Positions 20,834-61,940 of a DNA stretch of 64,000 bases are shown one piece after another (position 1 is the stretch's first letter; every line of letters begins with the position of its first letter). The stretch is from Dehalococcoidia bacterium (GTDB lineage: Bacteria; Chloroflexota; Dehalococcoidia; Lucifugimonadales; UBA3495). Location of the stretch: assembly GCA_965237775.1 (NCBI GenBank), contig OZ250155.1:17084-81083 (forward strand), written 5' to 3'. The notes under the pieces are model-generated. The model was not told the DNA's origin and made no database searches. It worked only from the letters and a program-made list of their open reading frames with translations. The position numbers were made by a program, and so were the translations under genes.

Positions 20834-22689
20834 CCTAGAAATGCGGATGAAAAGCCTTGGTTGAGAAGAGGGCTTTAGGCAGAAAGGCCGGCGTCAGCAA
20901 CGCCAGCGGCCAAATCAGACCGAGCCGGATTGCACCAAATGTTGCTGTAGCACTGTCGGCGCCGGCCCAGGCGTCACGGTAGCCGATGGCAGCGCCACCA
21001 ATATCGCCTGTCAAACCGGTTTTGCCCGCCAGCAGGGTCAGGTTGGCCACCGTGGCTGCCAGGTACAGCTGGAACCGGGTTTTGGTCCGACCGAAGTAGC
21101 GGGCCTGGCGAATCCCCAGCTGCACCAGCCGGGCCAGCCGGTGCTCCACCACCACCCGGCGTTGACAATACCCGGCAAAGGCTTCGCTCTGCTGCAGGGC
21201 CCGGGCCTGCTGCAACAAAGCCTCCTGCGGGTGCAGTTGGACCGTTCGCCCCAATCCCGATGACCCGGCCACGCATTGAGAGCGCAGCGGGCAGGCTCCG
21301 CACACCGCCGCATCGAACCGGAAGGCTTGCAGCCGGTGAGTCCGTCCCGTGGAACCGGTCCGCTTCCCCGCCGGCAGCAGCTTCCGGGTGACCTGACCCG
21401 CCGGACAGGTGCAGGTTCCCGCCGCCAGGTCAATCCGGAAGTCATCCTTCGGGAAGTGTTTCCGGTTCGGACGGCCCGGCACCCGGGCAATCAGGGTCCG
21501 TCCCGCGTCGGCGAAGGCCTGCCTGGTATCGCCGTCGCCATAAGCGGCATCGCCCAGCGCCTCCTCCACCGGCACACCGGTATTGGCCTCGCTCCGTTCC
21601 ACCAGTTCCAAGGCCCCCAGGTTGTCCGGAGCGTTGCCGGGCAATACTTCCACAGCAGTAATGAGCTGGGTATCGGTGTCCACCACAATCGCCGCCTTGT
21701 GCCCGTCGAAGCGACGGCTGCTGCTCTTGTGGCCGTGGCGCATCTCCGGGTCATGCACCGACACCATCCGGTCCTTGCTCACCCCGTCCTTGAGACCAAT
21801 ACCGTCGCCGGTGCGCTCCACATCCTGGAGCAGCAACTGCCCCAGCAACTCCGCCGCCGCGACGATGCCCTGCCGCTCAGGGCTGCCCTCCGGCAGAGCC
21901 TCCTGCGCCTGCCGCCCTGCTTCCAACAGACGGTCGGCGTCAGCCACAATCGTGGCCAGCAACCCCGCCCGTGCCCCCTTGTCGGACCAGTCGATGGCCG
22001 ACTCTCCCTTGATGCTGGATGCAAGGTACCGCCCGTACCCCTGGGCCTCGGCCCATCCTTTGACATTGGACCTCTCCACGGCTGCCAGCGCCCGCAGCAG
22101 CTTCACAATCCCGTCCGCCAGCAGGTTGAAGGTGTCCCTCACGGCGCCCCGCCCCAGGATGTTCGTGGTGTCCAGCGCCACCCGCATGCCGCGCTTTTTT
22201 AGGTAGCCCGACTCCCGGGCCAGCCGCAGGCTGGACTCGAACACCGCCCGCACCTTGTCGTGGAGAATCAACTGGGCGCGGAACACCTGGAGCGTGCTCT
22301 TGGCGAAGGGCCTGTCCTCCACCTCAATTCCCAACGCCACTTTCCAGCGGATGTCGAAGTCGGCTCTGGCCTTGGCCTCGGCGTCGCTCACCTTGTCGTG
22401 GGTCTGCAGCAGCAGCGCCGTGGCCAGCAGGCTGGGCGGCACGCTGTCCCGGCCGTTGTCGGCGCAGTAGAACTCGGCGAAGTCGGAGTCCCGGAATAGT
22501 TGGCCTCTCAACGATGCCAACAGGCCGTAGAAAGTGTCCTTACCCACGTGGTCCAGATACAGCCGGTCCGCCTCCCAGAAGCCCCTCTGATCCGATCGCT
22601 CTCCCAGCATTCCCTTGCTCCGCTATCTTTGATACCCCGGAGTATAACCCCTGGCATCAAAATGGACAGTTTCCGGCCAGACTTCTAGG
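20834..22689 (-). mobile_element. IS1182/IS5-superfamily insertion sequence, copy A, 1856 bp
   Basis: The ends are CCTAGAAGTCTGG... and ...CCGCATTTCTAGG (an inverted repeat matching at 10 of 13 positions). The element appears identical to the copies at 23433-25288 and 60085-61940. Confidence 0.9.
20835..22610 (-). CDS. IS1182/IS5-like DDE transposase (591 aa)
   Basis: The N-terminal InsH/DUF772-like region reads GRDSVPPSLLATALLLQTHDKVSDAEAKARADFDIRWKVALG. The DDE region contains FDGHKAAIVVD and LGDAAYGDGD. The C-terminus reads RRVVVEHRLARLVQLGIRQARYFGRTKTRFQLYLAATVANL. Confidence 0.9.
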   Translation of the reverse strand: MLGERSDQRGFWEADRLYLDHVGKDTFYGLLASLRGQLFRDSDFAEFYCADNGRDSVPPSLLATALLLQTHDKVSDAEAKARADFDIRWKVALGIEVEDRPFAKSTLQVFRAQLILHDKVRAVFESSLRLARESGYLKKRGMRVALDTTNILGRGAVRDTFNLLADGIVKLLRALAAVERSNVKGWAEAQGYGRYLASSIKGESAIDWSDKGARAGLLATIVADADRLLEAGRQAQEALPEGSPERQGIVAAAELLGQLLLQDVERTGDGIGLKDGVSKDRMVSVHDPEMRHGHKSSSRRFDGHKAAIVVDTDTQLITAVEVLPGNAPDNLGALELVERSEANTGVPVEEALGDAAYGDGDTRQAFADAGRTLIARVPGRPNRKHFPKDDFRIDLAAGTCTCPAGQVTRKLLPAGKRTGSTGRTHRLQAFRFDAAVCGACPLRSQCVAGSSGLGRTVQLHPQEALLQQARALQQSEAFAGYCQRRVVVEHRLARLVQLGIRQARYFGRTKTRFQLYLAATVANLTLLAGKTGLTGDIGGAAIGYRDAWAGADSATATFGAIRLGLIWPLALLTPAFLPKALFSTKAFHPHF

Positions 22690-22807
22690 CCAGGCTTTGA
22701 TAGCACCAAGCCACGTGTCGTATGTTCACATGTTAATCTTGTCCGCCGATGCAGGACTGATATTCGGGATACTGTCAACATGGACCGGGGGGAGATTGGG
22801 AAACTAA
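22690..22807 (+). pseudogene. 3' part of the membrane protein gene split by IS copy A
   Basis: The in-frame continuation reads ...QALIAPSHVSYVHMLILSADAGLIFGILSTWTGGRLGN*, which appears as the C-terminus of track ORF 22514..22807. Confidence 0.5.
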
Positions 22808-23256
22808 GGTGGTCCGCGTCTGCTTGGCACGGGGCGAGGGTCTTCATAGAGACGGCCACCCTGGCGTTTGCTGGCCGATGGCTGATCAGGGATGGGTTCC
22901 AGTTGATTGCCGAGCAGCATAAGTCGATCCAAGAAGCGCAAGGGGAAATCCTCAACATCTGGCCACTCGTGTTAATGCGGTTTTTCGGTACGATGCTGGT
23001 CTTCGCGGGTAGCGTGTCATTGATGGCTAGACAGGCCAGGTCCTGGCCTCAGCAGGAGGAAGTAGTAGGACAGGTGTCTCTCTCCGAACGTATCAGGTAT
23101 GGGGTTAGACGCGCTAAGGAGATAGTGAAATCTATACGGTTTCCCATCTCAGGCGATCGACCACCAGGGCACGGTCCGGTAGATCGAAAGGGAGAGATTT
23201 GCCAAGTCGAACGGGGACCTTCAGGCGATCTGCCGAGACGTCGGATGGATGCGTAG
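22780..23256 (+). CDS. Hypothetical protein with two hydrophobic segments, located between the inverted IS copies
   Basis: This 158-aa ORF is the only sizeable ORF in the 743-bp spacer. I recognised no motif. Confidence 0.3.
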   Translation: MDRGEIGKLRWSASAWHGARVFIETATLAFAGRWLIRDGFQLIAEQHKSIQEAQGEILNIWPLVLMRFFGTMLVFAGSVSLMARQARSWPQQEEVVGQVSLSERIRYGVRRAKEIVKSIRFPISGDRPPGHGPVDRKGEICQVERGPSGDLPRRRMDA

Positions 23257-23432
23257 CCAATGCCGCCCGGCTCGGTGCCCAGCGTTCCCCTCAAAGGTTG
23301 GGGGGAGCTGTGATGACTAACCGCGCACCGGTGTCGGGTTACACAAGCGTGATAGTACGCCTACGGACACAGGGGCTCTGCCAATAGGATTCGACAAGAA
23401 ATCCGGGTGCATTCTCGAACCCCTGGGCAGGT

Positions 23433-25288
23433 CCTAGAAGTCTGGCCGGAAACTGTCCATTTTGATGCCAGGGGTTATACTCCGGGGTATCAAAGATAGC
23501 GGAGCAAGGGAATGCTGGGAGAGCGATCGGATCAGAGGGGCTTCTGGGAGGCGGACCGGCTGTATCTGGACCACGTGGGTAAGGACACTTTCTACGGCCT
23601 GTTGGCATCGTTGAGAGGCCAACTATTCCGGGACTCCGACTTCGCCGAGTTCTACTGCGCCGACAACGGCCGGGACAGCGTGCCGCCCAGCCTGCTGGCC
23701 ACGGCGCTGCTGCTGCAGACCCACGACAAGGTGAGCGACGCCGAGGCCAAGGCCAGAGCCGACTTCGACATCCGCTGGAAAGTGGCGTTGGGAATTGAGG
23801 TGGAGGACAGGCCCTTCGCCAAGAGCACGCTCCAGGTGTTCCGCGCCCAGTTGATTCTCCACGACAAGGTGCGGGCGGTGTTCGAGTCCAGCCTGCGGCT
23901 GGCCCGGGAGTCGGGCTACCTAAAAAAGCGCGGCATGCGGGTGGCGCTGGACACCACGAACATCCTGGGGCGGGGCGCCGTGAGGGACACCTTCAACCTG
24001 CTGGCGGACGGGATTGTGAAGCTGCTGCGGGCGCTGGCAGCCGTGGAGAGGTCCAATGTCAAAGGATGGGCCGAGGCCCAGGGGTACGGGCGGTACCTTG
24101 CATCCAGCATCAAGGGAGAGTCGGCCATCGACTGGTCCGACAAGGGGGCACGGGCGGGGTTGCTGGCCACGATTGTGGCTGACGCCGACCGTCTGTTGGA
24201 AGCAGGGCGGCAGGCGCAGGAGGCTCTGCCGGAGGGCAGCCCTGAGCGGCAGGGCATCGTCGCGGCGGCGGAGTTGCTGGGGCAGTTGCTGCTCCAGGAT
24301 GTGGAGCGCACCGGCGACGGTATTGGTCTCAAGGACGGGGTGAGCAAGGACCGGATGGTGTCGGTGCATGACCCGGAGATGCGCCACGGCCACAAGAGCA
24401 GCAGCCGTCGCTTCGACGGGCACAAGGCGGCGATTGTGGTGGACACCGATACCCAGCTCATTACTGCTGTGGAAGTATTGCCCGGCAACGCTCCGGACAA
24501 CCTGGGGGCCTTGGAACTGGTGGAACGGAGCGAGGCCAATACCGGTGTGCCGGTGGAGGAGGCGCTGGGCGATGCCGCTTATGGCGACGGCGATACCAGG
24601 CAGGCCTTCGCCGACGCGGGACGGACCCTGATTGCCCGGGTGCCGGGCCGTCCGAACCGGAAACACTTCCCGAAGGATGACTTCCGGATTGACCTGGCGG
24701 CGGGAACCTGCACCTGTCCGGCGGGTCAGGTCACCCGGAAGCTGCTGCCGGCGGGGAAGCGGACCGGTTCCACGGGACGGACTCACCGGCTGCAAGCCTT
24801 CCGGTTCGATGCGGCGGTGTGCGGAGCCTGCCCGCTGCGCTCTCAATGCGTGGCCGGGTCATCGGGATTGGGGCGAACGGTCCAACTGCACCCGCAGGAG
24901 GCTTTGTTGCAGCAGGCCCGGGCCCTGCAGCAGAGCGAAGCCTTTGCCGGGTATTGTCAACGCCGGGTGGTGGTGGAGCACCGGCTGGCCCGGCTGGTGC
25001 AGCTGGGGATTCGCCAGGCCCGCTACTTCGGTCGGACCAAAACCCGGTTCCAGCTGTACCTGGCAGCCACGGTGGCCAACCTGACCCTGCTGGCGGGCAA
25101 AACCGGTTTGACAGGCGATATTGGTGGCGCTGCCATCGGCTACCGTGACGCCTGGGCCGGCGCCGACAGTGCTACAGCAACATTTGGTGCAATCCGGCTC
25201 GGTCTGATTTGGCCGCTGGCGTTGCTGACGCCGGCCTTTCTGCCTAAAGCCCTCTTCTCAACCAAGGCTTTTCATCCGCATTTCTAGG
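23433..25288 (+). mobile_element. IS1182/IS5-superfamily insertion sequence, copy B, 1856 bp
   Basis: It has the same ends and the same internal ORF set as copy A, in the opposite orientation. Confidence 0.9.
23512..25287 (+). CDS. IS1182/IS5-like DDE transposase (591 aa)
   Basis: Its translation is identical to those of 20835..22610 and 60164..61939. Confidence 0.9.
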   Translation: MLGERSDQRGFWEADRLYLDHVGKDTFYGLLASLRGQLFRDSDFAEFYCADNGRDSVPPSLLATALLLQTHDKVSDAEAKARADFDIRWKVALGIEVEDRPFAKSTLQVFRAQLILHDKVRAVFESSLRLARESGYLKKRGMRVALDTTNILGRGAVRDTFNLLADGIVKLLRALAAVERSNVKGWAEAQGYGRYLASSIKGESAIDWSDKGARAGLLATIVADADRLLEAGRQAQEALPEGSPERQGIVAAAELLGQLLLQDVERTGDGIGLKDGVSKDRMVSVHDPEMRHGHKSSSRRFDGHKAAIVVDTDTQLITAVEVLPGNAPDNLGALELVERSEANTGVPVEEALGDAAYGDGDTRQAFADAGRTLIARVPGRPNRKHFPKDDFRIDLAAGTCTCPAGQVTRKLLPAGKRTGSTGRTHRLQAFRFDAAVCGACPLRSQCVAGSSGLGRTVQLHPQEALLQQARALQQSEAFAGYCQRRVVVEHRLARLVQLGIRQARYFGRTKTRFQLYLAATVANLTLLAGKTGLTGDIGGAAIGYRDAWAGADSATATFGAIRLGLIWPLALLTPAFLPKALFSTKAFHPHF

Positions 25289-25317
25289 GAACCAATATTA
25301 TTACCTGGAGGTGGACC

Positions 25318-26097
25318 ATGGCACTCATAGACCTCAATCGCCCGCCGGGCGAATATCTCCCGGAGCAGCGTGACCACGGTTGTGTCAGCGGAGACGTGGA
25401 GGCGGTGTTCCGCAACCATCAGGAACGGGTGATACACCTCTTCAAGGAGGCCCGCGAGCGCAACCTGGCGTGCGTGGGCGCGGTCGCCTGGCTCACCGCC
25501 CCCCGGGTCCTCGCCGCGATGGCCACTATCCCCACGTCGCTAATAGTCCAGAAGGAAGACTTCCTGCGCTCGGACATCTCCGCCGGCGGAAACCTCGACG
25601 CGTGGAAGGCACGCCTGCGGCGGCAGTACGAGGCCATCGCCGACTCGGACCGCCGGCGAGACCCGGGCATTGCGTTCCAGCGCCAGAACATGCCCGATCC
25701 CCTTGGAAGCATGTCATACGGCGGCGACCCGCAGATTTCCGGCGTCTATGCTTTCGGCATCAGGAATGACCGGAGCAAGGAGGGAGGGCGGAGACAGCCC
25801 CTGATGCACAACAAGTTCTTGGCGTTCATCAGGGGTGTCGTGCAGGCTGGTACTGCCTGTGAGGGAGAGGGGGACGGGGCCTCAACCCTCGACTTCCACT
25901 GGCTTGTCGAGGCCGTTTGGACGGGCTCCTGCAACCTGAGCCTGTTGGCCCCGCGGTCCCGGGAGAATACGGTCATCATCAGGGACCCTGCCATCGGCAA
26001 CGCCTACCTGCACGAGTGGGCGGACATGATGGCCCTATCGGAGCCCCCGGACTGGAACTCGGCTTGGATCGACCCCCAATGGCGCACCGGCACCTGA
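25318..26097 (+). CDS. Phospholipase D-family (single HKD motif, Nuc-like) protein
   Basis: The HKD signature is LMHNKFLAF, followed by VWTGSCNLSLLAPRSRENTVII (an HxK...GSxN arrangement). GGAGGTGG lies upstream of the ATG. Confidence 0.7.
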   Translation: MALIDLNRPPGEYLPEQRDHGCVSGDVEAVFRNHQERVIHLFKEARERNLACVGAVAWLTAPRVLAAMATIPTSLIVQKEDFLRSDISAGGNLDAWKARLRRQYEAIADSDRRRDPGIAFQRQNMPDPLGSMSYGGDPQISGVYAFGIRNDRSKEGGRRQPLMHNKFLAFIRGVVQAGTACEGEGDGASTLDFHWLVEAVWTGSCNLSLLAPRSRENTVIIRDPAIGNAYLHEWADMMALSEPPDWNSAWIDPQWRTGT

Positions 26098-26194
26098 CGC
26101 TGCCGCCGCCAGCGGCTGTGAAAACCCGGATTATTGACATAATTATCGGGGAGGTGAGGCATGGCGAAACCGCAGGGACGGCTCCTATTTCTGG

Positions 26195-26713
26195 GTGACC
26201 TGGCTCACCAAACTCCTGAGCGGAGAGAACTCGTGCGAATGGGCGACCTGGTTCAGGGCCCGCCACGAGAGCGGCAGCTGGGAGCAGGTCCCCGGGGATT
26301 TCGACCGGGCCGGGAGGCAGAACCACTTTGCCCTGAGGGGCGGCGCGGGCACGCTGGGAGGCCAGCCGGACCTGGTCGCCAGGATGGGCGAGACGGGCGC
26401 CATCATCGACGCCAAGACCGGGAAACCGAGCCCGTCCCACCTGGCCCAGGTCATTCTCTACATGTACGCCGTGCCCAGGGCAATCGGGCGGCGCCAGGGC
26501 GTGGTCTTCGACGGCCAGGTGGCCTGTGCGGACTACGTCGTCGACATACCGGCCTCCGACGTCGATGACCGGTTCGTGGAACGGCTCTCACAGTTGATCG
26601 GCCGGTTGGCGTCGGACGCCCCGGTGAGGAAGATTCCCAGAACCGGCGCTCGCCGGTTCTGCCCCATCACGGCGGGGGGAACCGTTCGCTATTGGGGTAT
26701 GAGGGTATTGTAG
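26195..26713 (+). CDS. PD-(D/E)xK nuclease, Cas4/RecB-like
   Basis: The core reads QPDLVARMGETGAIIDAKTGKPSPSHLAQVILYMYA (D...D-x-K...Q..Y), with an N-terminal Cys (ENSCEW) and a C-terminal RRFCPI. The start is uncertain: the track uses a GTG and the frame is open from 26138. Confidence 0.6.
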   Translation: MTWLTKLLSGENSCEWATWFRARHESGSWEQVPGDFDRAGRQNHFALRGGAGTLGGQPDLVARMGETGAIIDAKTGKPSPSHLAQVILYMYAVPRAIGRRQGVVFDGQVACADYVVDIPASDVDDRFVERLSQLIGRLASDAPVRKIPRTGARRFCPITAGGTVRYWGMRVL

Positions 26714-27494
26714 CCAGCCCTATATGCCCCACGAGCAAACGATACAGGCCAGGCCGCCGCCGAATGGGCCCGCCACCGGGACATCGTCTCCCTCGGGACC
26801 CTGACCGTCGCAACCGCCGTGACCGGCACAGCCGTCGTGATCGCAACCGGCTCGGCGATGTCCCGGGACATCGCCGCCGGCAACCCGGCAACCCGGCAAC
26901 CCCGGTTATCATCTGGGGCTACTTGGGCATCATCATCCTGGGACTCTACCTGGCCATCACACTGGCGACCGACGCCGCTGAGCCGGAGACCAGGGAGACC
27001 CCGCACAGGCATGGCGCCGCGGTATCCCCGCCGTAAGCCATCATGGCCAACTCGGCCGCCGGAAACGGCGACTGGCGCCTGGCGATCATCTGGTCCGTGG
27101 CCGCAGCGGTCTTCGTCTCAGCACCGACGGTTTTCCTGTTCAGGTTCGAGAGACGGAGATGAGCCCGTGAGTCCGGAAGCAAGGCCAGGCGAGAGGCCGG
27201 AGACCAAGAGAAGGCGCGACCGCCTTGCTGGTATCCCGAAGGCCACGACGATGGAAGCCGCCACCGACCCGGGCTGGCTGACTACGATTACGATCAATAG
27301 TCGGGACGACTTCCCTGGGGATTCCGGGGTGAACCCCAGGCGGGCAACTCCTGAGCGCCCTGCTTCCGGGCGGGCAGTATCACCCGGTACATCAAGGCCG
27401 AAGGTTTCAGGGGATAGATGACCGCCTTCGCCGACAACCAGAGAGGACCCACGGAAGAAATCCCGGATGTGCCGGCCTTCATCAACAGGTCGAC

Positions 27495-27672
27495 TCACCC
27501 GTAATTGACACTGAAGGACGGAGACATCCTGAAAGCGCCATCCCGGGCAACCCATTGCGCCCGCAGATTACCCCCCGCCAAAGCCCGCTCCAGCATCTCC
27601 AAGGCCAATCGGCCCTGTGTCAGTCGGCCGGCTAACGGCTCAGTGGCCGCCGCCAAGCCGGAAACGAAGTGT
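27495..27672 (-). pseudogene. Relic fragment of an IS701-family transposase
   Basis: The reverse-strand translation GRLALEMLERALAGGNLRAQWVARDGAFRMSPSFSVNYG* parallels TELALVMLERARELGHLRAKWVAGDDAFGMSPSFREGL in the intact copy at 1542..2819. Confidence 0.45.
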
Positions 27673-27813
27673 CCCGTACTCCTAGGGGATTTCCCTACGG
27701 TTTCACCCCTTTTCTATGACATCCCCCCTGCATCGGCACCTACAGGAATCGCAGGACGCTCCCCCACCGAACTGTCCGGTGGTTGTAGCTGATGGTGGGG
27801 TATTTCAACGGGC

Positions 27814-30303
27814 CTAGGGTGCAGAGCTGTGGGGTGGATCACCCGACTCAAGTGTCCGGGCCCTCCGGGCCCTCCGGGCTGTCCGAACCGCACGGTCCAC
27901 CATCTTGGCCCACTGGTCGAACTTCTTGCAGGCGTCCCGCCTGATATTCGGGTATTCTTTCAAGATGTCCCTAAACGCTTGACGAGGATCTGTCTTGGTC
28001 TGGGACGTTGTTAACCACCGCAGGAGATTTGCTGGACGGACCTCGTTTTGGTACTGTTCCTCCAGCCTGAGACAATACTGAGCCATCTTCTCTAAGGGGC
28101 CCGCGGGAACCGCGTGTTGCCGCGCCGCGCCATAGTCGATAATGGCCCTGACACGGTGCAGGCACAGGCGCTCCGCATTAGTGAGACCGGTCTGCGTCAA
28201 GCGCCTTACAACGGTCCGGTCGGCCTCGGCTACCAGATCGTTTATCTTTCTCAACGCTTCCCATCGTCGCCGAGCTCGGTCCTGGGCGGTGGCATGTGTC
28301 CTAACTGGCTCCGGTGACGGAGCCGGCGGCGCCGGCGCCGGCGCCTCTTGCAGCACACGGTCCTGGGCAGCAGCCGCTTTTCTAACCGGCGCTGGGGACG
28401 GAGTTGGTGGCATCGGGGTGGAAACCGGCTTGTTCGTGGAAGCTCCTGCCTTGCCCTCATTCGGCACGCGGTCCATCTCTGCCTGGTCGATGGGCGGTGG
28501 TTCCCAATCTAGTTCCTCCGTCACGGGGTCCGACCAGATGCGTTGCTCTTCGAGCAATCTTACCCAAACCTCGAGCGAAGGTTTACTGTAGTCCAGCCGC
28601 CGTCCCGTCCGCTGCTGGAGGTGACCCCGGTACTCCCTGGCAATATCACTCAACCCCACCGGGCGGCCCTTGCATCGCCATACACTCTCCGGCCCCTCCC
28701 ATACGCCTTTGGAGAATTCCTTCAAGGTGGCGGTGAGAATCATCAAATCCCCCGCCAGGTCATCAAAGCGCTTCGCAGGCAACTCCTCACCGGTAATGAC
28801 CAGGATGGGGAAAGACTTTCCCAGCCGGATCGGGGCCAGGCGGTATGAGCGGAGCTTTTCTTCCTCTATCCGTTTCTTCGCCTTCGCCGAAAACTCCACC
28901 TCCAGGGGAACCCACATGCCTTCCTCCCGGCCGGGTACCGGCACCCGAACCCAGAGGTCGGGGACCAACTGGCCATCGTGCCAGGACACCACCCATCTCC
29001 ACCCGGCGGCCACCGGCATCCCAGCCCCCAGGAACGCTGCCGCCACCTCCGCCACCGCCGAGTCATGGCGCCTTTCCCTTATCGCATCCGCTCCCTCCGG
29101 GTCCAGATGCGTGACCTCCACCAGCCGGTCGGCATCCACCCTGTCCCGAGCAGCCAACATTTCGCGACCCCTCTGGGTAACATAGATGTTTTTTTCGATG
29201 CTTGTGATCAGCCCACGGTCTGCCAAGGGATCGACTGCAGCATTGACCGCGCCGCCGGACATATGAAAGGCTCTCACCAGGTTCGCCCTGGTGGCTGCCC
29301 GAAACTCCGACACAAAGGCCAGGAGCCGATATACCCGTGTACCCCCCAGATTCACCAGGTCGGGACCCTCTCCGATGGCCGCAGCCTCGGGGTGGCCGAT
29401 CGACCTGGCCTGCGGAGGCTTCTCCCTCAGAGTCCACTCGCTGTGACTGGCCTCTGCAGACCAGACCAGGGCGCCGGCTGTGTCCACGGACCCCACCTCC
29501 ACGTCGTCACCATAGGCGGTCTTTGATCGAAACGCCGCAAATTCGTCCAGTCCAATGGCGGCAACGGGCGGATCTATATCCCACCAGATACGGTCTTCCG
29601 GACCGCGGGGAGAGCGAATGAACTTGGAGCCAAGCCGGAGACTGCGGGACTGGTAGTCCTCCTGGGGCAGCAGTCCGGCCCAGAAGAAGGGGATGGAGTA
29701 GAACCCGGGGCGCTTGGTATACAGGTCAAAACGCCAGGTGGCTACGGCGTGCAGGCGGCCACTGGGCAACCACCGGACCTCGGTCAGGGTGGGCACGCCC
29801 AGCCAGACAAGACTGCTGCAGGCCGGATCCGGATAGCTGGACTGCCACTGGAATGGTCTGGCAAGCCCACAGGTCCAGAACGTGGGGAGGATCTCATAGA
29901 GGGATTCGATCATGGGCAGCCATAGCAGCATCCTTGTGACACCTTCTTCCGTCATCTGCCAGGTAAGGGGCAGCGCTGCCCGAAGCAGGCCCCTGTACTG
30001 GAAGGGCTTGATCACGTGATTCACACCCTCTCGCGCCAGCACATACCGCCGTTGAATCCGGCGGGTCACGCCCAGTCCGCGGCCGGCGATGAGTTTCTTC
30101 TTCTCCAACTCGTGACACGCCTTGTGAATTTCGGAATCTGACATATCGAGCCTTTTGGCGAGATCCGAGGCGGAGGCCCAGGGCTGATGCGCCAGCGCCA
30201 ACAGAATCCGCTCCTCCGGGGGGAACTCTGCCAGTAATGTTGCATCCTCTGCCCGCCCCCCTGCAGGGTGAAGACGCGGCGGGAATGCTGCTCGGTGCTG
30301 CAT
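27814..30303 (-). CDS. Replication-relaxation (Replic_Relax)-like protein with two wHTH regions and a long C-terminal extension (829 aa)
   Basis: The first wHTH reads ASASDLAKRLDMSDSEIHKACHELEKKKLIAGRG. The second reads ATRANLVRAFHMSGGAVNAAVDPLADRGLITS. The core reads RHDSAVAEVAAAF...LVPDLWVRVPV...WVPLEVEFSAKAKKRIEEEKLRSYRL. It is paralogous to 3776..5516. Confidence 0.65.
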   Translation of the reverse strand: MQHRAAFPPRLHPAGGRAEDATLLAEFPPEERILLALAHQPWASASDLAKRLDMSDSEIHKACHELEKKKLIAGRGLGVTRRIQRRYVLAREGVNHVIKPFQYRGLLRAALPLTWQMTEEGVTRMLLWLPMIESLYEILPTFWTCGLARPFQWQSSYPDPACSSLVWLGVPTLTEVRWLPSGRLHAVATWRFDLYTKRPGFYSIPFFWAGLLPQEDYQSRSLRLGSKFIRSPRGPEDRIWWDIDPPVAAIGLDEFAAFRSKTAYGDDVEVGSVDTAGALVWSAEASHSEWTLREKPPQARSIGHPEAAAIGEGPDLVNLGGTRVYRLLAFVSEFRAATRANLVRAFHMSGGAVNAAVDPLADRGLITSIEKNIYVTQRGREMLAARDRVDADRLVEVTHLDPEGADAIRERRHDSAVAEVAAAFLGAGMPVAAGWRWVVSWHDGQLVPDLWVRVPVPGREEGMWVPLEVEFSAKAKKRIEEEKLRSYRLAPIRLGKSFPILVITGEELPAKRFDDLAGDLMILTATLKEFSKGVWEGPESVWRCKGRPVGLSDIAREYRGHLQQRTGRRLDYSKPSLEVWVRLLEEQRIWSDPVTEELDWEPPPIDQAEMDRVPNEGKAGASTNKPVSTPMPPTPSPAPVRKAAAAQDRVLQEAPAPAPPAPSPEPVRTHATAQDRARRRWEALRKINDLVAEADRTVVRRLTQTGLTNAERLCLHRVRAIIDYGAARQHAVPAGPLEKMAQYCLRLEEQYQNEVRPANLLRWLTTSQTKTDPRQAFRDILKEYPNIRRDACKKFDQWAKMVDRAVRTARRARRARTLESGDPPHSSAP

Positions 30304-30864
30304 ATTCTCAACCTCTTGTCCAACTCATACATCCAGTATGACGGAGAAATTTGGCTCCACTTGGGTTGTTAAGAGCGGAGGTGTCAATAGCAAGCCGGAT
30401 GGCTTGTTGAAAAAGTCAGACGCCGGGTGACCGCCTGAATTCGCACTACGAATATCGGCTTTCTTTTCGGTTATGTGTTATCGGCCCTCACTCGATATAA
30501 CTTTATCGCCCGACTTTCGGCAATGCAGACGCCGAGAATTTCTCCTGTACTCACTAGAGCGGACTTTTTCAACAAGCCCTCTATCTTCCTATTGACAGAC
30601 GGCGCAGGCGCAGGTCCGCGATGGCGCCCTCGGTGGCCCGAACACCGGCCAGTTGCGTGGGGTCTAGCGGGTAGGGGTGCTGGTGCAATGCGGTCATGGG
30701 TGGACTCCTGCGCCAATACTCTTGGGGATCATCCGGACACAATCCGGGGAACAGCAATAACCTTCAGGAGGTATCCGGGCCAAAGTTCACGAAAGGTCGG
30801 GAGTGTTACCTGGGATTGCGCTGGCGTGTGAGGGCGGCCCGGGCCTGAGTCTACGCGCAGTACA

Positions 30865-32414: not shown

Positions 32415-33654
32415 ATGATGGGTGGATTGAAGAATGGGTCGATCTTAGATTGTTTCGCGGGGTTGGAAGACCCACGAATTGAGCGTAGCAAGCGGCATAA
32501 GCTGCTGGACACCATAGCGATTGCCATCTGCGGAGCGAACTCCTGGGTCCACGTGGAGCTATTCGGCTGGAGCAAGGAGGAGTGGTTAAAGAGCTTCTTG
32601 GAACTGCCCAACGGAATCCCATCCCATGACACTTTCGGGGAGGTCTTCTCGCGGATAAACCCGGACCTGTTCCAAAGCTTTTTAATGGCATGGACCCAAG
32701 AGATAGCCCAACTGGCCCTGGGAGAAGTGGTGGCCATCGACGGGAAGACGGTGCGCCGCTCCCACGATGGATTCCGGCGCAAGGGGGCAATCCACCTGCT
32801 AAGCGCCTGGGCGTCGGCCAACAGCATGACTTTGGGACAGGTGAAGGTGGATGAGGAGTCCAACGAAATCACCTCCATTCCCAGGTTGCTGGAACTATTG
32901 ACCCTACATGGCTGTATCGTGACCATCGACGCCATGGGCTGTCAAAAGGAGATTGCCCAACAGATCGTCGACGCCGGGGCGGACTACGTGCTGGCGGTGA
33001 AGCAGAACCAGGGCCAGTTGTTTGAAGACGTACGTGACCTCTTCCAGGGTGCGGAAGAGTTTGGCTTTGAAGGAGTACCCCATGATTTCGCCCGGACTGT
33101 AGAGAAGGGCCACAGGCGCATCGAATCTCGAGAATGTTGGGTGGTCGCCGACCCGGGCTGTCTAGTATTACAACGACGGTTCAAGGCGGGATGTCGCGGG
33201 ATGCACGAAGGGCGGCGCGCCGCCCGCCGTGAAGACAGGATGGAGCCGCCACCCTAAAGCCGTCGTTGAAGTACTAGAGTACCTGGAGAACGGGAAGCAA
33301 TGGGCCGGGCTTGAGGCGGTGGTGAAAGTAACGGCCCGGCGGGAGACGGACCGGGGCGTGAGCATCCAGTCCCGTTACTACATCAGCAGCCTGAGGGCTC
33401 CCGCTGCCCGGATGCTGCAGGCCATTCGCCGCCACTGGGGCGTCGAGAATTCTCTGCATTGGACCTTGGACGTAACCTACCGAGAGGACCAATGCCGGGT
33501 GCGCAGAGACCATGCTCCCCAGAACATGGCGGCCCTGCGCAACATCTCCCATAACCTGCTCAAGCCCGAGTCCAGCCTCAAAACCGGTATCCAAGGCAAA
33601 CGGCTCCAAGCCGGCTGGCGTGAGCACTACCTGATCAAAGTCCTCTCCTCCTAA
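32415..33654 (+). pseudogene. ISAs1-family transposase interrupted by a 108-bp MITE
   Basis: The N-terminal part reads FAGLEDPRIERSKRHKLLDTIAIAICGANSWVHVELFG...IDAMGCQKEIAQQIV. The C-terminal part reads RYYISSLRAPAARMLQAIRRHWGVENSLHWTLDVTYREDQCR. Removing 33166-33277 restores ...ADPGCLEYLENGKQWAG in frame. Confidence 0.85.
33166..33273. mobile_element. 108-bp MITE related to the IS701-family element at 1493-2944
   Basis: Its ends, tattacaacgacgg and ccgtcgttgaagta, form an inverted repeat matching at 12 of 14 positions. A CTAG direct repeat flanks it at 33162-33165 and 33274-33277. The last 59 bp or so match the right end of the IS at 2886-2944 at about 55 of 59 positions. Confidence 0.85.
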
Positions 33655-52272: not shown

Positions 52273-53496
52273 CTACCCTGCCGGCGGTGCGAATGTGGGC
52301 CCGGCGATGTCTACTATTACTTCGATTACCCGGCTGTCAGCGTCTTCTCCAGTTACCCCAGAAGAAACGCAACGGCCTACGATGGGCTCGCTTATGGAAG
52401 TAGCCGTCTTCACTCTGAACGGGGTATCGGTGTCTAGGTCCTTGCTGGGCATATCAGGGGTGACGGCATCCCCGGGTTCAACGTCGTTCGAGGCCCTCGT
52501 CTTGGCGATGCCCTGGACCACCACCGGAACGAGGGCCGTCGCCTTGGCAACCAAGTCCCCAACGCTTTTGGTCCGGGGCGTGTGGTCTATACCGATGAGC
52601 ATGTGCGGCGCGGTCTCCGAGTCCATCCTGAATAAAGCTGGGTCATCGTCCGACTCCGAGACGGGATTGATGCCTACGACGTCACCGGCCATCAGGTCCT
52701 CACCAGCTTTGAAGTAATCGTCGATGATGAACCTGCGCCCCAGAAATCCTTCTTGGTTGAGAAGTGGAAGACCCAGGTTCCGGGGGTTCCTCTCCAGAAG
52801 GATGGAGTTATCACCGAAGAAGAACTCCAGCTCGGATTCTGCAATATGAGCGGAAAGGCCAAAGCCGATGCCCAGGGCAAGATTGGAGGCAAATACAACT
52901 CCGCACATACGGAATATGCCGGGGCTGTCCTCATATAAGATCGGAGCACCGGAATCCCCACGCACCAATGGACGGTCGTGCGGCAGAACAATCATTACTG
53001 GATACCAGTCGTAACCCTGAAAAGAAAAACCTTGGTTGATGAAGAAAACAGTACCCCGTTGAACACCTGATATTGCTCCCAATATGTGAACGGTCATGCC
53101 CACTCGCGGTGGTATGGACGCGGAGACGATCATCCCTAGATCGTGGGCAGGATTGTGAGCCTCAAATTCAGCGTCTACTCCAGATTCCAGTTCCAACACC
53201 GCCAGGTCCACCGAGTTGGTTACGCCGACAGACACCGGAGCCGAATCGTACATCCGGGCCACTAGATGGTCCGCGATGTCCCGGTCATTTTGGTACATCT
53301 CTTCTGTACGAGTGCGGGCGAACGTAGCCACGGTCACTACGTGAAGGCAGGTGGCCAAGAGTGGGTTGTTGGTTCGCCTGCTGGTCCCTAGCCCGGACAA
53401 GGTTCCAAACGCATTCCTGGTACGAATGCCCGGCGTCTTGACCTCGACGTAGAGACCCGCCATGAGAGGACGGTGCCAAGATTGTCTTTCAGTCAT
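52273..53496 (-). CDS. Cassette 2 protease: leaderless chymotrypsin-fold serine protease fused to a DUF2190-like domain (407 aa)
   Basis: The N-terminus reads WHRPLMAG...FGTLSGL. The triad candidates are LATCLHVV, SVDLAVLEL and RGDSGAPIL. The junction motif reads LPLLNQEGFLGRRFIIDDYFKAGEDLMAGDVVGI, followed by LIGIDHTP, LVPVVVQGIAK and IVGRCV. Confidence 0.8.
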   Translation of the reverse strand: MTERQSWHRPLMAGLYVEVKTPGIRTRNAFGTLSGLGTSRRTNNPLLATCLHVVTVATFARTRTEEMYQNDRDIADHLVARMYDSAPVSVGVTNSVDLAVLELESGVDAEFEAHNPAHDLGMIVSASIPPRVGMTVHILGAISGVQRGTVFFINQGFSFQGYDWYPVMIVLPHDRPLVRGDSGAPILYEDSPGIFRMCGVVFASNLALGIGFGLSAHIAESELEFFFGDNSILLERNPRNLGLPLLNQEGFLGRRFIIDDYFKAGEDLMAGDVVGINPVSESDDDPALFRMDSETAPHMLIGIDHTPRTKSVGDLVAKATALVPVVVQGIAKTRASNDVEPGDAVTPDMPSKDLDTDTPFRVKTATSISEPIVGRCVSSGVTGEDADSRVIEVIVDIAGPTFAPPAG

Positions 53497-54139: not shown

Positions 54140-55387
54140 CTACGATTGGGATGGCGCGTGACCCGCGCCGGAGATGTCCACCAGCACGTCAATCACGCGG
54201 TTTTCCTTCTCCTCGTCTGCGCCACGAGCCGACACACAGCGGCCGATGATGGGGTCGTTGGCGGATCTGGCGGTCTTCACCCTGGACGGAGCGTCGGCAG
54301 CCAGTGGTTCCGTGGGCATCTCAGGGGTGACCGAGTCCCCAACTCCGATGTCGTCAGAGGCTCGCGCCTTGGCGATTCCGTGTACCACTACCGGCACAAG
54401 GTCGGGAGAGGAGGCAACGCGGTCCCCCACTTGCTTTCCTGCCGGAGTGTGGACTATGCCGATGAGCATGTGCGGCTCCATGTCCGAGTCCATCTTGAAT
54501 AGTGCGGGGTCATCGTCCGACTCTGAGACGGGATTGATGCCTACGACGTCACCGGCCATCAGGTCTTCACCTGCCTTGAAATGGTCGTCGATGATCAACT
54601 TTCTCCCGGCGAACCCTTCGCTGGTTAAGATTGGAATTCCTTCGTTGCCCACCCCGACCGTCGGGTCTCCGAAGGTGATGTCAAGCTCTTGTTCGATGAT
54701 GGAGGCTTTAACTGCGGCGCCGGTGGGCAATAGGGGGTGTTCAGTTACATGGAGTCCCACCATGTGGAATTCGCCGGGGGAGGACTCGAGAAGCAGAGGG
54801 GCTCCAGAATCACCCGGTTCAGATTCAGGGCTCCCATCAACCGGCCTTGTTATAAACACGTTATAAAAGATTTGGAGCCCCGGTGCTGTAACAAAGTGTG
54901 TTGCAACCACGACTACATTGGACGGCCCTGTGACGGCTCCCAGGCGTAAGAGCCGCATACGAGAAGTGGGTTCTCGAACGCCTGCCAATATCCTTCCAGG
55001 AGTGTGGTCATCCGGATTTCCTCCCAGGTGACGGTGCGGCACAAGACTTGGGGTTACCGAGTCCGACAGCGTTATCGCAGCAGCTTCAGCCTCATGAAGT
55101 GATACTGGCACCGGGCCGAGGTCTGCCGGAGTCCACCGGACAGGATTTCCGATTCTCTGGTTGGACCTCCGAGGTGTCCCTTGATGGACTTCTGCCTCCT
55201 TCGTAACGTCGAAGGAACCCGACTTAGCTACAACATGGGCAGCGGTCACAGCGACGCGTTCTCCACCAGGATGAAGAGTGGCAATTCCGGTGAGAGTCCC
55301 CGATTGAATAACCTCGGAATCTGGGTACTTGGAGTAGATCGCCAATCCTGCCATCAACTCCTCGTGCTCAAGACTTCTCCAGGGCAT
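54140..55387 (-). CDS. Cassette 3 protease: leaderless chymotrypsin-fold serine protease fused to a DUF2190-like domain (415 aa)
   Basis: I chose the ATG at 55387 (MPWRSLEHEELMAG...SGTLTGIATL). The motifs are VTAAHVV (His) and PGDSGAPLL (Ser); the Asp position is unclear (EAAAITL). The junction motif reads IPILTSEGFAGRKLIIDDHFKAGEDLMAGDVVGI. The N-terminal 78 codons of the 493-aa track ORF are an Arg/Trp-rich overprint of the upstream gene. Confidence 0.75.
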   Translation of the reverse strand: MPWRSLEHEELMAGLAIYSKYPDSEVIQSGTLTGIATLHPGGERVAVTAAHVVAKSGSFDVTKEAEVHQGTPRRSNQRIGNPVRWTPADLGPVPVSLHEAEAAAITLSDSVTPSLVPHRHLGGNPDDHTPGRILAGVREPTSRMRLLRLGAVTGPSNVVVVATHFVTAPGLQIFYNVFITRPVDGSPESEPGDSGAPLLLESSPGEFHMVGLHVTEHPLLPTGAAVKASIIEQELDITFGDPTVGVGNEGIPILTSEGFAGRKLIIDDHFKAGEDLMAGDVVGINPVSESDDDPALFKMDSDMEPHMLIGIVHTPAGKQVGDRVASSPDLVPVVVHGIAKARASDDIGVGDSVTPEMPTEPLAADAPSRVKTARSANDPIIGRCVSARGADEEKENRVIDVLVDISGAGHAPSQS

Positions 55388-55389
55388 GG

Positions 55390-55607
55390 CTACCTCCAGG
55401 GGTCGTGTTCGATGATCTGGACCTTGACCCCATCCAAGACTGCCGGGATTCGGTCTTCCGTCGGCAAAGTTTCTTGATCGACCTTCTCGGTGACGAATAT
55501 CAGAATTCCAACCTCTCCAACGTAGTTGCCGTTCTCGTCGACCAGCAACCCAACGGCACCACCGTTGAAGTTCGGCTGCCGACCAAAGAGTTGGAGGTGC
55601 CGCTCTA
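55390..55607 (-). pseudogene. Cassette 3 lipoprotein, 3' part (split by an IS427-group element)
   Basis: The reverse-strand translation reads ERHLQLFGRQPNFNGGAVGLLVDENGNYVGEVGILIFVTEKVDQETLPTEDRIPAVLDGVKVQIIEHDPWR*. It joins in frame to 56451..56690 when the IS and one TA are removed. Confidence 0.75.
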
Positions 55608-56450
55608 GGGCGTGTCGTCAAAACAGGAACAAGATGGTAGATTATTTCGGAGAGTGTGAGTGTGTGGAGTTGAAGTATGGCGGCAGCGCATCGGCGTCAC
55701 GACCTTTCGGACAAGGTTTGGGAACAATTGAGACCTTACTTGCCTGGTGGAGCAGGCAAAAGGGGGCGTCCAGCCCGGGATAACCGGCTTTTCTTGAACG
55801 CGGTGTTTTGGATCCTGCGTACTGGGGCGCCCTGGCGGGACCTGCCGCCGGATTACGGGGACTGGAAGAACACCCATAGACGCTTTTGCCGGTGGCGAGA
55901 CCGCGGTGTCTGGGACCAACTGCTGGAGCGGGTCATCGAAGATCCGGACTTTGAGTGGTTGATGGTCGACGCAAGCCACATCAAGGTTCACCCTCATGGC
56001 ACTGGGGCCCGGGGAGGCAATCAAGCCATAGGCCGCACAAAAGGGGGCTAAACAGCAAACTGCACCTGGCGGTGGACTCCCACGGCATGCCGGTACGTAT
56101 GATCTTGACCGAGGGTACGGTGGCGGATTGCACGCAGGCTCATTCGCTGATCGCCGACATCCCAGCTGAATATCTGCTGGCAGACCGAGGCTACCACACC
56201 AACGGCATCGTGGCCGAAGCCGAGGGCCAGGGGATGGAACCGGTGATACCACCCAGGAGCCATCGCAAGGAACAACGGTACTACGACCGGGCACTGTACA
56301 AACTGCGGCACTTGGTCGAGAACTCATTCCTGGACTTCAAGCAATGGCGGGGGGTTGCCACCCGATATGCCAAAAACGCAGCGTCTTTCCTGGCAATTTG
56401 CCAAATCCGAGCGCTGGTCATCTGGACCAAGTTATTTTGACGACACCCCC
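55608..56450 (+). mobile_element. IS5-family (IS427-group) insertion sequence, 843 bp
   Basis: The terminal inverted repeats are GGGCGTGTCGTCAAAA (55608-) and ttttgacgacaccccc (-56450). A TA direct repeat flanks the element at 55606-55607 and 56451-56452. It carries two overlapping transposase ORFs. Confidence 0.85.
55677..56440 (+). CDS. IS427-group transposase, orfA (55677..56051) and orfB (to 56440), joined by a -1 frameshift at A4G5 (56039-56047)
   Basis: OrfA reads HDLSDKVWEQLRPYLPG...RDNRLFLNAVFWILRTGAPWRDLP. Slipping -1 on A-AAA-GGG-G gives ...AIGRTKGGLNSKLHLAVDSHG, then LLADRGY and LRHLVENSFLDFKQWRGVATRYAK. Confidence 0.85.
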
Positions 56451-56690
56451 TAATACTGCTACCGCGCGTTCCTCTGTTTTCTTGTGATACCCAGGGTATG
56501 GCTCGGTAGGGATGGGAGAGTTAGGGTTGATGCCCATTTTGGAACCTCCTGTCTCTGCTGTTGGCTCAACATTTTCCAGGGTTGAATCTGGCTTGCTAGA
56601 GTCGTTGGGCTCCTTCGAGCAACCCAAAGCCGGTAAGAGCAGAAGTATCACCACGACGAACGCGAGAGGTATCCCCCGAATCTTCAACAT
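56451..56690 (-). pseudogene. Cassette 3 lipoprotein, 5' part
   Basis: It reads MLKIRGIPLAFVVVILLLLPALGC|SKEPNDSS...YHKKTEERAVAVL. The track ORF 56418..56690 then reads into the IS end. Confidence 0.75.
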
Positions 56691-57365: not shown

Positions 57366-57637
57366 CCCAGTTCCGCCGCCTCCATGACCGTCAACCCTGG
57401 GGTCATTCGCCGGTGTGCCTGGCCCATCGCAGACAGGAGCCGGGGGACACTACCTTCCTGGACATCGACGCGGATACCGTCGATGGTGCGCGGCACTAAA
57501 CCAAAGCCAAGGTGGAATCTACATTTGTGGGGCGATGAAGATTGACTTGGGTGCCCAGGGAAGCTCTTGCTCCTGTGTCTGGAGAGCGATCCGGTGCCGC
57601 CGATTGACTTCCTCCATACGCGTATTTCACCTTGGTA

Positions 57638-57874
57638 TTAGTTTAGGTCCTCGGTGGCCAGGCCGGACTCAGGGACCTCTTGGCTAACGAGGACTTGCAG
57701 GCCGGTCTCGCCGGTCTTGTGACCGGCCTCGTAGACTAAGCCCACGCCGACGCCAACGACGTCCTCCCTGGAAAGGAGATCGGCGGCGTGCCGGGCCTTG
57801 AAGCCGCGGACTTCAGAGATATGTGGAGAAACTGCGGCCAAGTCGATTACTCCTCCATTCTTGCTTGTAACCAC
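57638..57874 (-). pseudogene. Cassette 4 pro-domain-like fragment without a signal peptide
   Basis: The 78-aa ORF reads ...LLSREDVVGVGVGLVYEAGHKTGETGLQVLVSQEVPE and ends prematurely. The expected continuation (PRTIDGIRVDVQEGS) lies downstream in ORF 57314..57496. Confidence 0.5.
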
Positions 57875-59648: not shown

Positions 59649-59676
59649 AATCCGTCCGTCCTTATATTGTTAGGAT

Positions 59677-60084: not shown

Positions 60085-61940
60085 CCTAGAAGTCTGGCCG
60101 GAAACTGTCCATTTTGATGCCAGGGGTTATACTCCGGGGTATCAAAGATAGCGGAGCAAGGGAATGCTGGGAGAGCGATCGGATCAGAGGGGCTTCTGGG
60201 AGGCGGACCGGCTGTATCTGGACCACGTGGGTAAGGACACTTTCTACGGCCTGTTGGCATCGTTGAGAGGCCAACTATTCCGGGACTCCGACTTCGCCGA
60301 GTTCTACTGCGCCGACAACGGCCGGGACAGCGTGCCGCCCAGCCTGCTGGCCACGGCGCTGCTGCTGCAGACCCACGACAAGGTGAGCGACGCCGAGGCC
60401 AAGGCCAGAGCCGACTTCGACATCCGCTGGAAAGTGGCGTTGGGAATTGAGGTGGAGGACAGGCCCTTCGCCAAGAGCACGCTCCAGGTGTTCCGCGCCC
60501 AGTTGATTCTCCACGACAAGGTGCGGGCGGTGTTCGAGTCCAGCCTGCGGCTGGCCCGGGAGTCGGGCTACCTAAAAAAGCGCGGCATGCGGGTGGCGCT
60601 GGACACCACGAACATCCTGGGGCGGGGCGCCGTGAGGGACACCTTCAACCTGCTGGCGGACGGGATTGTGAAGCTGCTGCGGGCGCTGGCAGCCGTGGAG
60701 AGGTCCAATGTCAAAGGATGGGCCGAGGCCCAGGGGTACGGGCGGTACCTTGCATCCAGCATCAAGGGAGAGTCGGCCATCGACTGGTCCGACAAGGGGG
60801 CACGGGCGGGGTTGCTGGCCACGATTGTGGCTGACGCCGACCGTCTGTTGGAAGCAGGGCGGCAGGCGCAGGAGGCTCTGCCGGAGGGCAGCCCTGAGCG
60901 GCAGGGCATCGTCGCGGCGGCGGAGTTGCTGGGGCAGTTGCTGCTCCAGGATGTGGAGCGCACCGGCGACGGTATTGGTCTCAAGGACGGGGTGAGCAAG
61001 GACCGGATGGTGTCGGTGCATGACCCGGAGATGCGCCACGGCCACAAGAGCAGCAGCCGTCGCTTCGACGGGCACAAGGCGGCGATTGTGGTGGACACCG
61101 ATACCCAGCTCATTACTGCTGTGGAAGTATTGCCCGGCAACGCTCCGGACAACCTGGGGGCCTTGGAACTGGTGGAACGGAGCGAGGCCAATACCGGTGT
61201 GCCGGTGGAGGAGGCGCTGGGCGATGCCGCTTATGGCGACGGCGATACCAGGCAGGCCTTCGCCGACGCGGGACGGACCCTGATTGCCCGGGTGCCGGGC
61301 CGTCCGAACCGGAAACACTTCCCGAAGGATGACTTCCGGATTGACCTGGCGGCGGGAACCTGCACCTGTCCGGCGGGTCAGGTCACCCGGAAGCTGCTGC
61401 CGGCGGGGAAGCGGACCGGTTCCACGGGACGGACTCACCGGCTGCAAGCCTTCCGGTTCGATGCGGCGGTGTGCGGAGCCTGCCCGCTGCGCTCTCAATG
61501 CGTGGCCGGGTCATCGGGATTGGGGCGAACGGTCCAACTGCACCCGCAGGAGGCTTTGTTGCAGCAGGCCCGGGCCCTGCAGCAGAGCGAAGCCTTTGCC
61601 GGGTATTGTCAACGCCGGGTGGTGGTGGAGCACCGGCTGGCCCGGCTGGTGCAGCTGGGGATTCGCCAGGCCCGCTACTTCGGTCGGACCAAAACCCGGT
61701 TCCAGCTGTACCTGGCAGCCACGGTGGCCAACCTGACCCTGCTGGCGGGCAAAACCGGTTTGACAGGCGATATTGGTGGCGCTGCCATCGGCTACCGTGA
61801 CGCCTGGGCCGGCGCCGACAGTGCTACAGCAACATTTGGTGCAATCCGGCTCGGTCTGATTTGGCCGCTGGCGTTGCTGACGCCGGCCTTTCTGCCTAAA
61901 GCCCTCTTCTCAACCAAGGCTTTTCATCCGCATTTCTAGG
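60085..61940 (+). mobile_element. IS1182/IS5-superfamily insertion sequence, copy C, 1856 bp
   Basis: It has the same ends and internal ORFs as copies A and B. It is inserted between the convergent genes 59677..60084 and 61936..63165. Confidence 0.9.
60164..61939 (+). CDS. IS1182/IS5-like DDE transposase (591 aa)
   Basis: Its translation is identical to those of the other two copies. Confidence 0.9.
   Translation: MLGERSDQRGFWEADRLYLDHVGKDTFYGLLASLRGQLFRDSDFAEFYCADNGRDSVPPSLLATALLLQTHDKVSDAEAKARADFDIRWKVALGIEVEDRPFAKSTLQVFRAQLILHDKVRAVFESSLRLARESGYLKKRGMRVALDTTNILGRGAVRDTFNLLADGIVKLLRALAAVERSNVKGWAEAQGYGRYLASSIKGESAIDWSDKGARAGLLATIVADADRLLEAGRQAQEALPEGSPERQGIVAAAELLGQLLLQDVERTGDGIGLKDGVSKDRMVSVHDPEMRHGHKSSSRRFDGHKAAIVVDTDTQLITAVEVLPGNAPDNLGALELVERSEANTGVPVEEALGDAAYGDGDTRQAFADAGRTLIARVPGRPNRKHFPKDDFRIDLAAGTCTCPAGQVTRKLLPAGKRTGSTGRTHRLQAFRFDAAVCGACPLRSQCVAGSSGLGRTVQLHPQEALLQQARALQQSEAFAGYCQRRVVVEHRLARLVQLGIRQARYFGRTKTRFQLYLAATVANLTLLAGKTGLTGDIGGAAIGYRDAWAGADSATATFGAIRLGLIWPLALLTPAFLPKALFSTKAFHPHF

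Follow-up and report, generated by a model that had tools for sequence, protein, structure and literature searches.

A recently active IS1182-family insertion sequence flanked by CTAG in an uncultured Dehalococcoidia bacterium

What are the three identical repeats of 1856 bp that lie within 41 kb of one another on a contig from an uncultured Dehalococcoidia bacterium, and do they make the DNA between them a mobile unit? We address this question for a window of 64,000 nucleotides, the whole stretch of DNA analysed here (assembly GCA_965237775.1, contig OZ250155.1, positions 17,084 to 81,083), in which the repeats are called copies A, B and C (Table 1). We have little doubt that the repeat is an undescribed insertion sequence (IS) of the IS1182 family, that it has been active recently and that its clade has expanded in uncultured Dehalococcoidia (Chloroflexota). 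The three copies would be three separate insertions, each into its own CCTAGG site, with the pairings among them (A/B and A/C inverted, B/C direct) arising as a consequence of copy number. The pairs would then be possible substrates for homologous recombination and not a designed composite transposon or switch.

The initial annotation had described three identical copies, bounded everywhere by CCTAG...CTAGG, and had taken them as the mark of very recent transposition of an insertion sequence. Aligning them, as it had suggested, brings out no nucleotide difference: A (reverse-complemented), B and C agree at 1856 of 1856 positions, all three carry these bounds, and a repeat search of the window independently found the same arms at 100% identity. 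The same search reproduced the geometry. A and B form an inverted pair, left ends toward the spacer between them, and B and C are direct repeats flanking 25289-60084 (34,796 bp). A and C form a further inverted pair around 37.4 kb, which had been overlooked. Each copy is an element of 1846-1854 bp, depending on whether the flanking CTAGs are counted, with one open reading frame (ORF) of 591 amino acids. Elements of the IS1182 family measure about 1.3-1.95 kb in ISfinder, and the length found here falls inside that range.

The family assignment comes from the transposase. The NCBIfam IS1182 equivalog NF033551 (transpos_IS1182) matches residues 15-528 with 326 bits, above its cut-off of 270, and the models of the IS5 and ISNCY families remain far under their cut-offs for the same protein. 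Pfam domains DUF772 (N-terminal), DDE_Tnp_1 and DDE_Tnp_1_6 are present. When the protein is aligned with the transposases of ISMgi3 and of a Streptomyces IS1182 element, with which it shares 32-34% amino acid identity, or 34-35% in this alignment, residues D147, D354, E489, Y481, R485, C402, C437, C440 and C446 are invariant. The family models and the catalytic residues show an intact transposase, and the element is indeed an insertion sequence. Its closest annotated plasmid-borne relatives reach only about 33% amino acid identity, and a megablast comparison of the IS DNA with plasmids gave no match, which makes the element a member of a known family that had not been described before.

The terminal inverted repeats are short and imperfect: the two ends share CTAGAA without mismatch and agree at about 14 of their first 20 positions, and an AAnnCnGG core directly inside the CTAGs is conserved across the clade. 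Within the element the transposase frame meets no stop. It continues across the right inverted repeat and ends in the TAG of the terminal CTAG (25285-25287 in copy B), and the stop lies within the terminal CTAG in about 75 of 80 relatives as well. Under either of the duplication models discussed below, the stop codon of the transposase is supplied by the target. Members of the Dehalococcoidia clade carry a C-terminal extension of about 65 amino acids, which actinobacterial members do not have. A simple scan of the element found no sigma-70-like promoter and no terminator.

Where, then, does the element end? Two readings had been offered. The first was an 1846-bp element that targets CCTAGG and duplicates CTAG; the second placed CCTAG within the inverted repeats, with no duplication, and the sequence was held unable to decide between them. 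Comparative sequence does decide. We compared 88 copies, made up of the three in the window, six near-identical copies in metagenome contigs and 79 relatives in Dehalococcoidia metagenome-assembled genomes (MAGs); comparison loci are cited by L numbers. CTAG stands at both ends in 85 of the 88 (87 of 88 when each end is counted separately). Three degenerate copies are off-consensus at one end each (L068 TTAG...CTAG, L085 CTAG...ATAG and L010 CTGG...CTAG), and all three can be explained by mutation. The bases outside CTAG vary in near-identical copies, e.g. gCTAG...CTAGg in L002, cCTAG...CTAGa in L004 and cCTAG...CTAGc in L005. The outer C and G are therefore target bases and not part of the element or of a repeat unit.

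These outer bases are far from random. C is found at -1 in 50 copies and G at +1 in 55, both together in 30 (34%), and CCTAGG makes up only 5.8% of the 759 unoccupied CTAG sites in the same DNA (binomial p = 8e-16 against the insertions). The core target is CTAG, with CCTAGG as a strong preference and not a requirement. Given that preference, three of three window copies in CCTAGG (about 0.04) is unremarkable.

Our argument for a duplication is based on alignments with uninterrupted homologues. An empty site in a related genome, which the initial annotation had named as the means of determining the duplication, was found for copy C in L091 and holds a single CTAG. When the IS is taken out of the window and one CTAG is kept, the sequence follows that of L091 collinearly for 3.7 kb, with no gap where the two flanks meet, and L091 carries a tail-tube gene 69% identical to the window's. 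The empty site reads ...GTTACTC-CTAG-ACTATCCTCCGG... and the occupied site in the window ...GTTACTC-CTAG[IS]CTAG-GCTACCCTCCGG..., an occupied versus empty polymorphism at an orthologous position. Together with the identity of the copies, this supports recent transposition. Five further junctions rebuilt with one CTAG also align gap-free to uninterrupted homologues: L002 against L004 and L029, L018 against L028, L026 against a paralogue and L030, L062 against L080, and L036 against the window itself. One CTAG likewise restores the IS3 OrfB in L002, the IS21 IstA in L022 and long ORFs in L004, L018 and L030.

The net gain per insertion is thus 1850 bp, with two CTAGs at occupied sites, one at empty sites and no target sequence lost. 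A single CTAG at empty sites and variable outer bases are incompatible with CCTAG as part of the inverted repeats. The first reading survives in its CTAG duplication and its length and has to be amended in its target, CCTAGG being only enriched. An 1846-bp element with a 4-bp CTAG duplication fits all the data, and an 1848-bp element ending G...C, with duplication of TA inside a CTAG target, fits them equally. The element inserts into the tetranucleotide CTAG, favouring sites flanked by C...G (CCTAGG), and we suggest that staggered cleavage followed by repair leaves one CTAG at each side.

We also asked, for each of the 88 copies, whether keeping zero, one or two CTAGs restores a reading frame. 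This gave 'decisive' cases in the proportion 3:3:1 and was not relied on; at the G+C content of this DNA spurious ORFs of some length abound, which makes the count unreliable. On inspection the 'decisive' cases for zero CTAGs were antisense or out-of-frame ORFs, and L022 restores IstA only with one CTAG.

How does this element compare with those already described? ISMgi3, from plasmid pMSPYR101 of Mycolicibacterium gilvum Spyr1, and other actinobacterial IS1182 elements belong to the same family, with the same domain order and a single ORF, and ISMgi3 shares the conserved D, D, E, Y-R-E and Cys residues. ISMgi3 splits a recombinase gene, reading ...CACCG-CTAG-GAGACTGCTGAATTA...TAATTCAGCAGTCTC-CTAG-ATCC..., and the Streptomyces element reads CTAG-AAGACTCATGAAGATCTTG...CAAGATCTTCATGAGTCTT-CTAG. 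Being shared by two such distant members, CTAG...CTAG flanks are typical of the family. The inverted repeats directly inside the CTAG are also alike, with CTAG-AAGACT... in the Streptomyces element and CTAG-AAGTCT... in the window. The differences lie in the host phylum, which is Chloroflexota here, and in the end of the gene: in the actinobacterial elements about 60-160 bp lie between the transposase stop and the right end, whereas the frame of the window clade reaches the terminal CTAG.

A stop codon taken from the target recalls a different group of elements. By its curated model the window transposase belongs to the IS1182 family, unlike IS870, an element assigned to the IS630 family that duplicates TA. 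Both IS870, from Agrobacterium vitis, and ISMt1, from M. tuberculosis, insert into 5'-CTAG-3' and use the target TAG as the transposase stop (PMC13630536, citing Fournier et al. 1993). The window element resembles them in its use of CTAG and in its target-supplied stop, a behaviour that is thus already known. The shared behaviour is not evidence of family membership. Within the IS1182 family a stop supplied by CTAG might be the first case, a modest novelty. Palindromic targets are known in part of the family. Some IS1182 members target palindromes (PMC5678879), and ISPsy36 of Pseudomonas syringae pv. actinidiae is reported to insert at the 4-bp palindrome GGCC, recurrently at identical positions (PMC8027508). 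Likened here by description, ISPsy36 differs from the window element in its target, GGCC and not CTAG, and is 1666 bp long (PMC8027508). IS1272 of staphylococci, also an IS1182 member, targets palindromic sequence as well (PMC5678879) and is reported to replace a stem-loop without target duplication; the window IS differs in its net 4-bp duplication with no loss of target at empty sites. The element is biologically ordinary, and the known picture of how such elements work is unchanged.

The clade is a large one. An identical transposase protein is encoded on at least eight metagenome contigs, and the six copies retrieved (L001-L006) differ from the window copy by 3-4 synonymous changes, lie in six different flanks from four samples and are mostly identical among themselves. 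The copy in L002 (ena:ERZ25067264:ctg824627_8x_c) lies within an IS3 element on a 57.7-kb contig that is labelled circular and also encodes a resolvase and a Uma2-family gene; because of these features, the IS there may be riding on a plasmid or phage-like replicon. Among GTDB species representatives we found at least 514 relatives of the transposase. The best 80 of these are 76-92% identical in amino acid sequence, all come from Dehalococcoidia MAGs with 3-5 Mb genomes, and tens of copies per genome are frequent among them. In L036 (OZ253670.1) the chromosome is syntenic with window positions 1-5538 at 74-85%. The ends, target and site preference are now described for an IS1182 clade with hundreds of copies in large-genome Dehalococcoidia MAGs. 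This description will aid annotation, and it helps to account for rearrangements and broken assemblies in these Dehalococcoidia, which are uncultured inhabitants of soil and sediment.

Several points weigh against three recent and independent insertions of a CTAG-duplicating element. Transposition is deduced from sequence comparison, and continuing activity is presumed. The 4-bp and 2-bp duplication models are inseparable by sequence. No orthologous empty site for A or B was found, so we infer that these two, like C, are simple insertions. The perfect identity of the copies could be explained by gene conversion or assembly polishing in place of very recent transposition. Finally, B could be a recombinant junction, since homology to L087/L088 breaks exactly at its CTAG, with a different left flank.

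This break concerns a module of 5.1 kb to the right of copy B. Window positions 25284-30396 match L088 9967-15056 (L087/L088, a contig from another sample) at 98.1%, and the module encodes a 259-amino-acid protein without family match, a PD-(D/E)xK protein, small ORFs and an 829-amino-acid protein with a MarR-type winged helix-turn-helix (wHTH). Both borders are sharp, the left one falling exactly on the CTAG beside copy B and the right one at 30396, and neither side has the same neighbours in the two contigs (to the left an IS graveyard; to the right an S24 peptidase and housekeeping genes). In L088 an IS66-like element ends 253 bp before the module, and the flank is not an IS end. The CTAG at B either marks the border proper to a mobile module of 5.1 kb or records the rearrangement of one lineage at the IS there.

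Does the present order then stem partly from homologous recombination between IS copies, with B, and possibly A, as a recombinant junction of neighbours that were not originally together? The geometry would allow it: there are three identical 1.86-kb repeats, in both orientations, within 41 kb, so that an exchange between B and C would remove 36.65 kb, or free it in circular form, and one between A and B or between A and C would invert the intervening DNA. The exact stop of the homology at the right end of B, opposite a left sequence in L088 that is unrelated to the window spacer and is not the end of another IS, points the same way. However, that left flank is not beside any IS copy among those compared, the break is equally explicable as the natural edge of a mobile module or as a rearrangement in the other lineage, and C is not a breakpoint, since the genes on either side of it are collinear with relatives. 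An ORF across copy A is open in either orientation of the spacer (42 or 32 codons) and is uninformative. We saw no signs in the sequence that copy pairs have recombined or moved as units, and consider this history a minor possibility. The fuller version, in which the locus has been reshaped by recombination among all three copies, B joins the 5.1-kb module to unrelated DNA, and B-C deletions or 36.7-kb circles and A-B and A-C inversions occur as population variants, seems to us similarly doubtful.

That the perfect identity merely reflects consensus polishing or repeat collapse in a long-read metagenome assembly, or gene conversion, we regard as distinctly improbable. The related contigs do look like long-read metagenome assemblies, going by the coverage tags in their names, and the copies in other samples, mostly identical to one another, differ only at 3-4 synonymous sites. 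However, the copies have unique flanks on both sides and are only 1.86 kb long, which ordinary long reads span easily. Identical or near-identical copies are found in different flanks across four samples, and the occupied versus empty polymorphism at C points to real mobility. Consensus polishing could have slightly inflated the exact identity.

The surroundings of copy C bear on whether B and C form a unit. Copy C sits in the CTAG that forms the TAG stop of a phage tail-tube gene (Pfam Phage_tube_2), and the order of this gene followed by a 590-amino-acid gene is kept, without the IS, in L092 (65% amino acid identity). From this synteny and the prophage genes nearby it follows that copy C lies inside a prophage-like region continuing rightward and that B lies outside, so that B-C is not a natural unit. 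Copy C is a simple insertion within a prophage tail module.

It is therefore very improbable that B and C, or A and B, are a composite transposon that moves the intervening DNA as one unit. The geometry on which the initial annotation had based a composite or invertible A-B arrangement and a B-C deletion or circle stands, with two identical intact copies flanking each segment (743 bp for A/B, 34.8 kb for B/C), CTAG at the outermost ends, and a module homology that starts exactly at the CTAG of B, placing the DNA beside B in more than one context; but the CTAG flanks are uninformative because every insertion of the element makes them, the flanks of C are contiguous in L091 and its tail-tube synteny is kept in L092, so the right end of a 'B-C transposon' would fall in the middle of a prophage tail module, the part of the cargo that recurs stops at 30396 and not at C and has other borders and no IS in L088, the spacer ORF is found only in this genome, and the left flank of A and the right flank of B are unlike the L088 junction. 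We thus return to three separate insertions as the reading of this locus, the independence of A and B being presumed.

Table 1. Coordinates of the IS copies and of other features in the window
Feature	Position	Strand	Evidence or remark
IS copy A, CTAG to CTAG	20835..22688, 1854 bp; core 20839-22684 = 1846 bp	-	identity to B and C; CTAG at 20835 and 22685
Transposase gene of copy A, 591 aa	20835..22610	-	TAG stop within terminal CTAG
Spacer between inverted A and B	22690..23432, 743 bp	.	contains 158-aa ORF 22780-23256 (+)
IS copy B, CTAG to CTAG	23434..25287; core 23438-25283	+	identity to A and C
Transposase gene of copy B	23512..25287	+	IS1182 family; DUF772, DDE_Tnp_1 and DDE_Tnp_1_6; D147, D354, E489 intact
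IS copy C, CTAG to CTAG	60086..61939; core 60090-61935	+	identity to A and B; orthologous empty site in L091
Transposase gene of copy C, 591 aa	60164..61939	+	ORF search and identity to A and B
Module right of copy B: 259-aa protein, PD-(D/E)xK protein, 829-aa wHTH protein	25284..30396, 5.1 kb	.	98.1% shared with another contig
Phage tail-tube gene beside copy C	61936..63165	-	left intact; TAG stop regenerated by insertion
Tape-measure gene	42496-44172
Tyrosine integrase	34071-35282
PIN protein	36627-37115
ImmA/HTH regulator	39257-40360
IS701-family element	1493-2944		flanked by CTAG at 1489 and 2945
IS66 transposase	9810-11141
IS1380 element	about 17.2-20.66 kb (17218-20657)		split by IS110 element at 18368-20043
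ISAs1	32415-33654		probable frameshift
IS5-family element, two ORFs	55605-56457		flanked by CTA

Copy A is separated by 176 bp from the end of an IS1380 element and adjoins the nest that this forms with an IS110 element. Copy B reads toward the 259-amino-acid gene, and its end is 30 bp short of the start codon. The spacer between A and B holds an orphan ORF, whose sole database match is to the same genome and which has no Pfam match. Exact-protein look-ups for the tail-tube protein, the spacer ORF and the 590-amino-acid protein, in an index that does not include the window's own contig, returned no record, a scan of IMG/VR with the tail-tube protein gave 0 matches, and a scan of JGI metagenomes for the right flank of copy B also gave 0. 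The window contains no tRNA gene that would mark a prophage attachment site.

Insertion sequences crowd the window, and CTAG is its most depleted tetranucleotide: it occurs 77 times, where base composition predicts 233 and a Markov estimate about 111. Of those that remain, many coincide with TAG stops of genes on either strand, e.g. at 27814, 35282, 40360, 57876 and 61936. At least two other IS types of the window, IS701 and IS5, use CTAG or the CTA it contains, and in other genomes relatives of both are often found abutting IS1182 copies and sharing a CTAG with them. Elements of the IS1182, IS701 and IS5 families nest side by side because each insertion makes a new CTAG for the next.

The IS701-family element encodes a 425-amino-acid transposase (1542-2819; 352 bits with NCBIfam) between perfect terminal repeats TACTACAACGAC...GTCGTTGTAGTA. 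Its relatives often abut an IS1182 copy with which they share one CTAG (e.g. in L007, L009-L012, L014, L048, L053, L067, L069 and L072), and the shared border is visible as a palindrome-like flank, GTCGTTGTAATA-CTAG-TATTACAACGAC. The IS5-family element is 853 bp long and lies among 'protease cassette' genes. It has overlapping ORFs at 55677-56051 and 55955-56440, both matching NF033580, and repeats GGGCGTGTCGTCAAAA...TTTTGACGACACCCC; a 99.5% identical copy is present in L053, and a relative abuts an IS1182 copy in L063.

The IS110 element within the IS1380 element has a 531-amino-acid ORF at 18428-20023. The same nest is found in L086 (85% over 3.2 kb) and partly in L088, and the IS1380 element is uninterrupted in L035, L059, L081, L072 and L046. 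From this distribution it would seem that the IS110 element has its target site within IS1380, or that the two elements travel together. Shortly upstream of the tyrosine integrase lies the ISAs1 transposase in two pieces, ORFs 32415-33257 and 33229-33654, and the element is probably frameshifted and inactive.

Other repeats are shorter. Sequences of about 150-165 bp at 57495-57647 and 6740-6904 recur at 75-88% identity in L016, L036 and L072 and in L027 and L062, and may be like miniature inverted-repeat transposable elements. A direct repeat of 300 nt at 95% identity (7022-7321 and 7532-7831) lies within a 557-amino-acid ORF (7013-8686) as a duplicated domain. Another, of 193 nt at 82% identity (52577-52769 and 54444-54636), falls between neighbouring protease-like genes, which form paralogous cassettes. 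Finally, the region 11893-16466 looks by eye like a candidate defence cluster, with a 696-amino-acid DUF262/GmrSD-like protein, a DNA methyltransferase-like ORF (14330-15325) and a 386-amino-acid partner (15306-16466).

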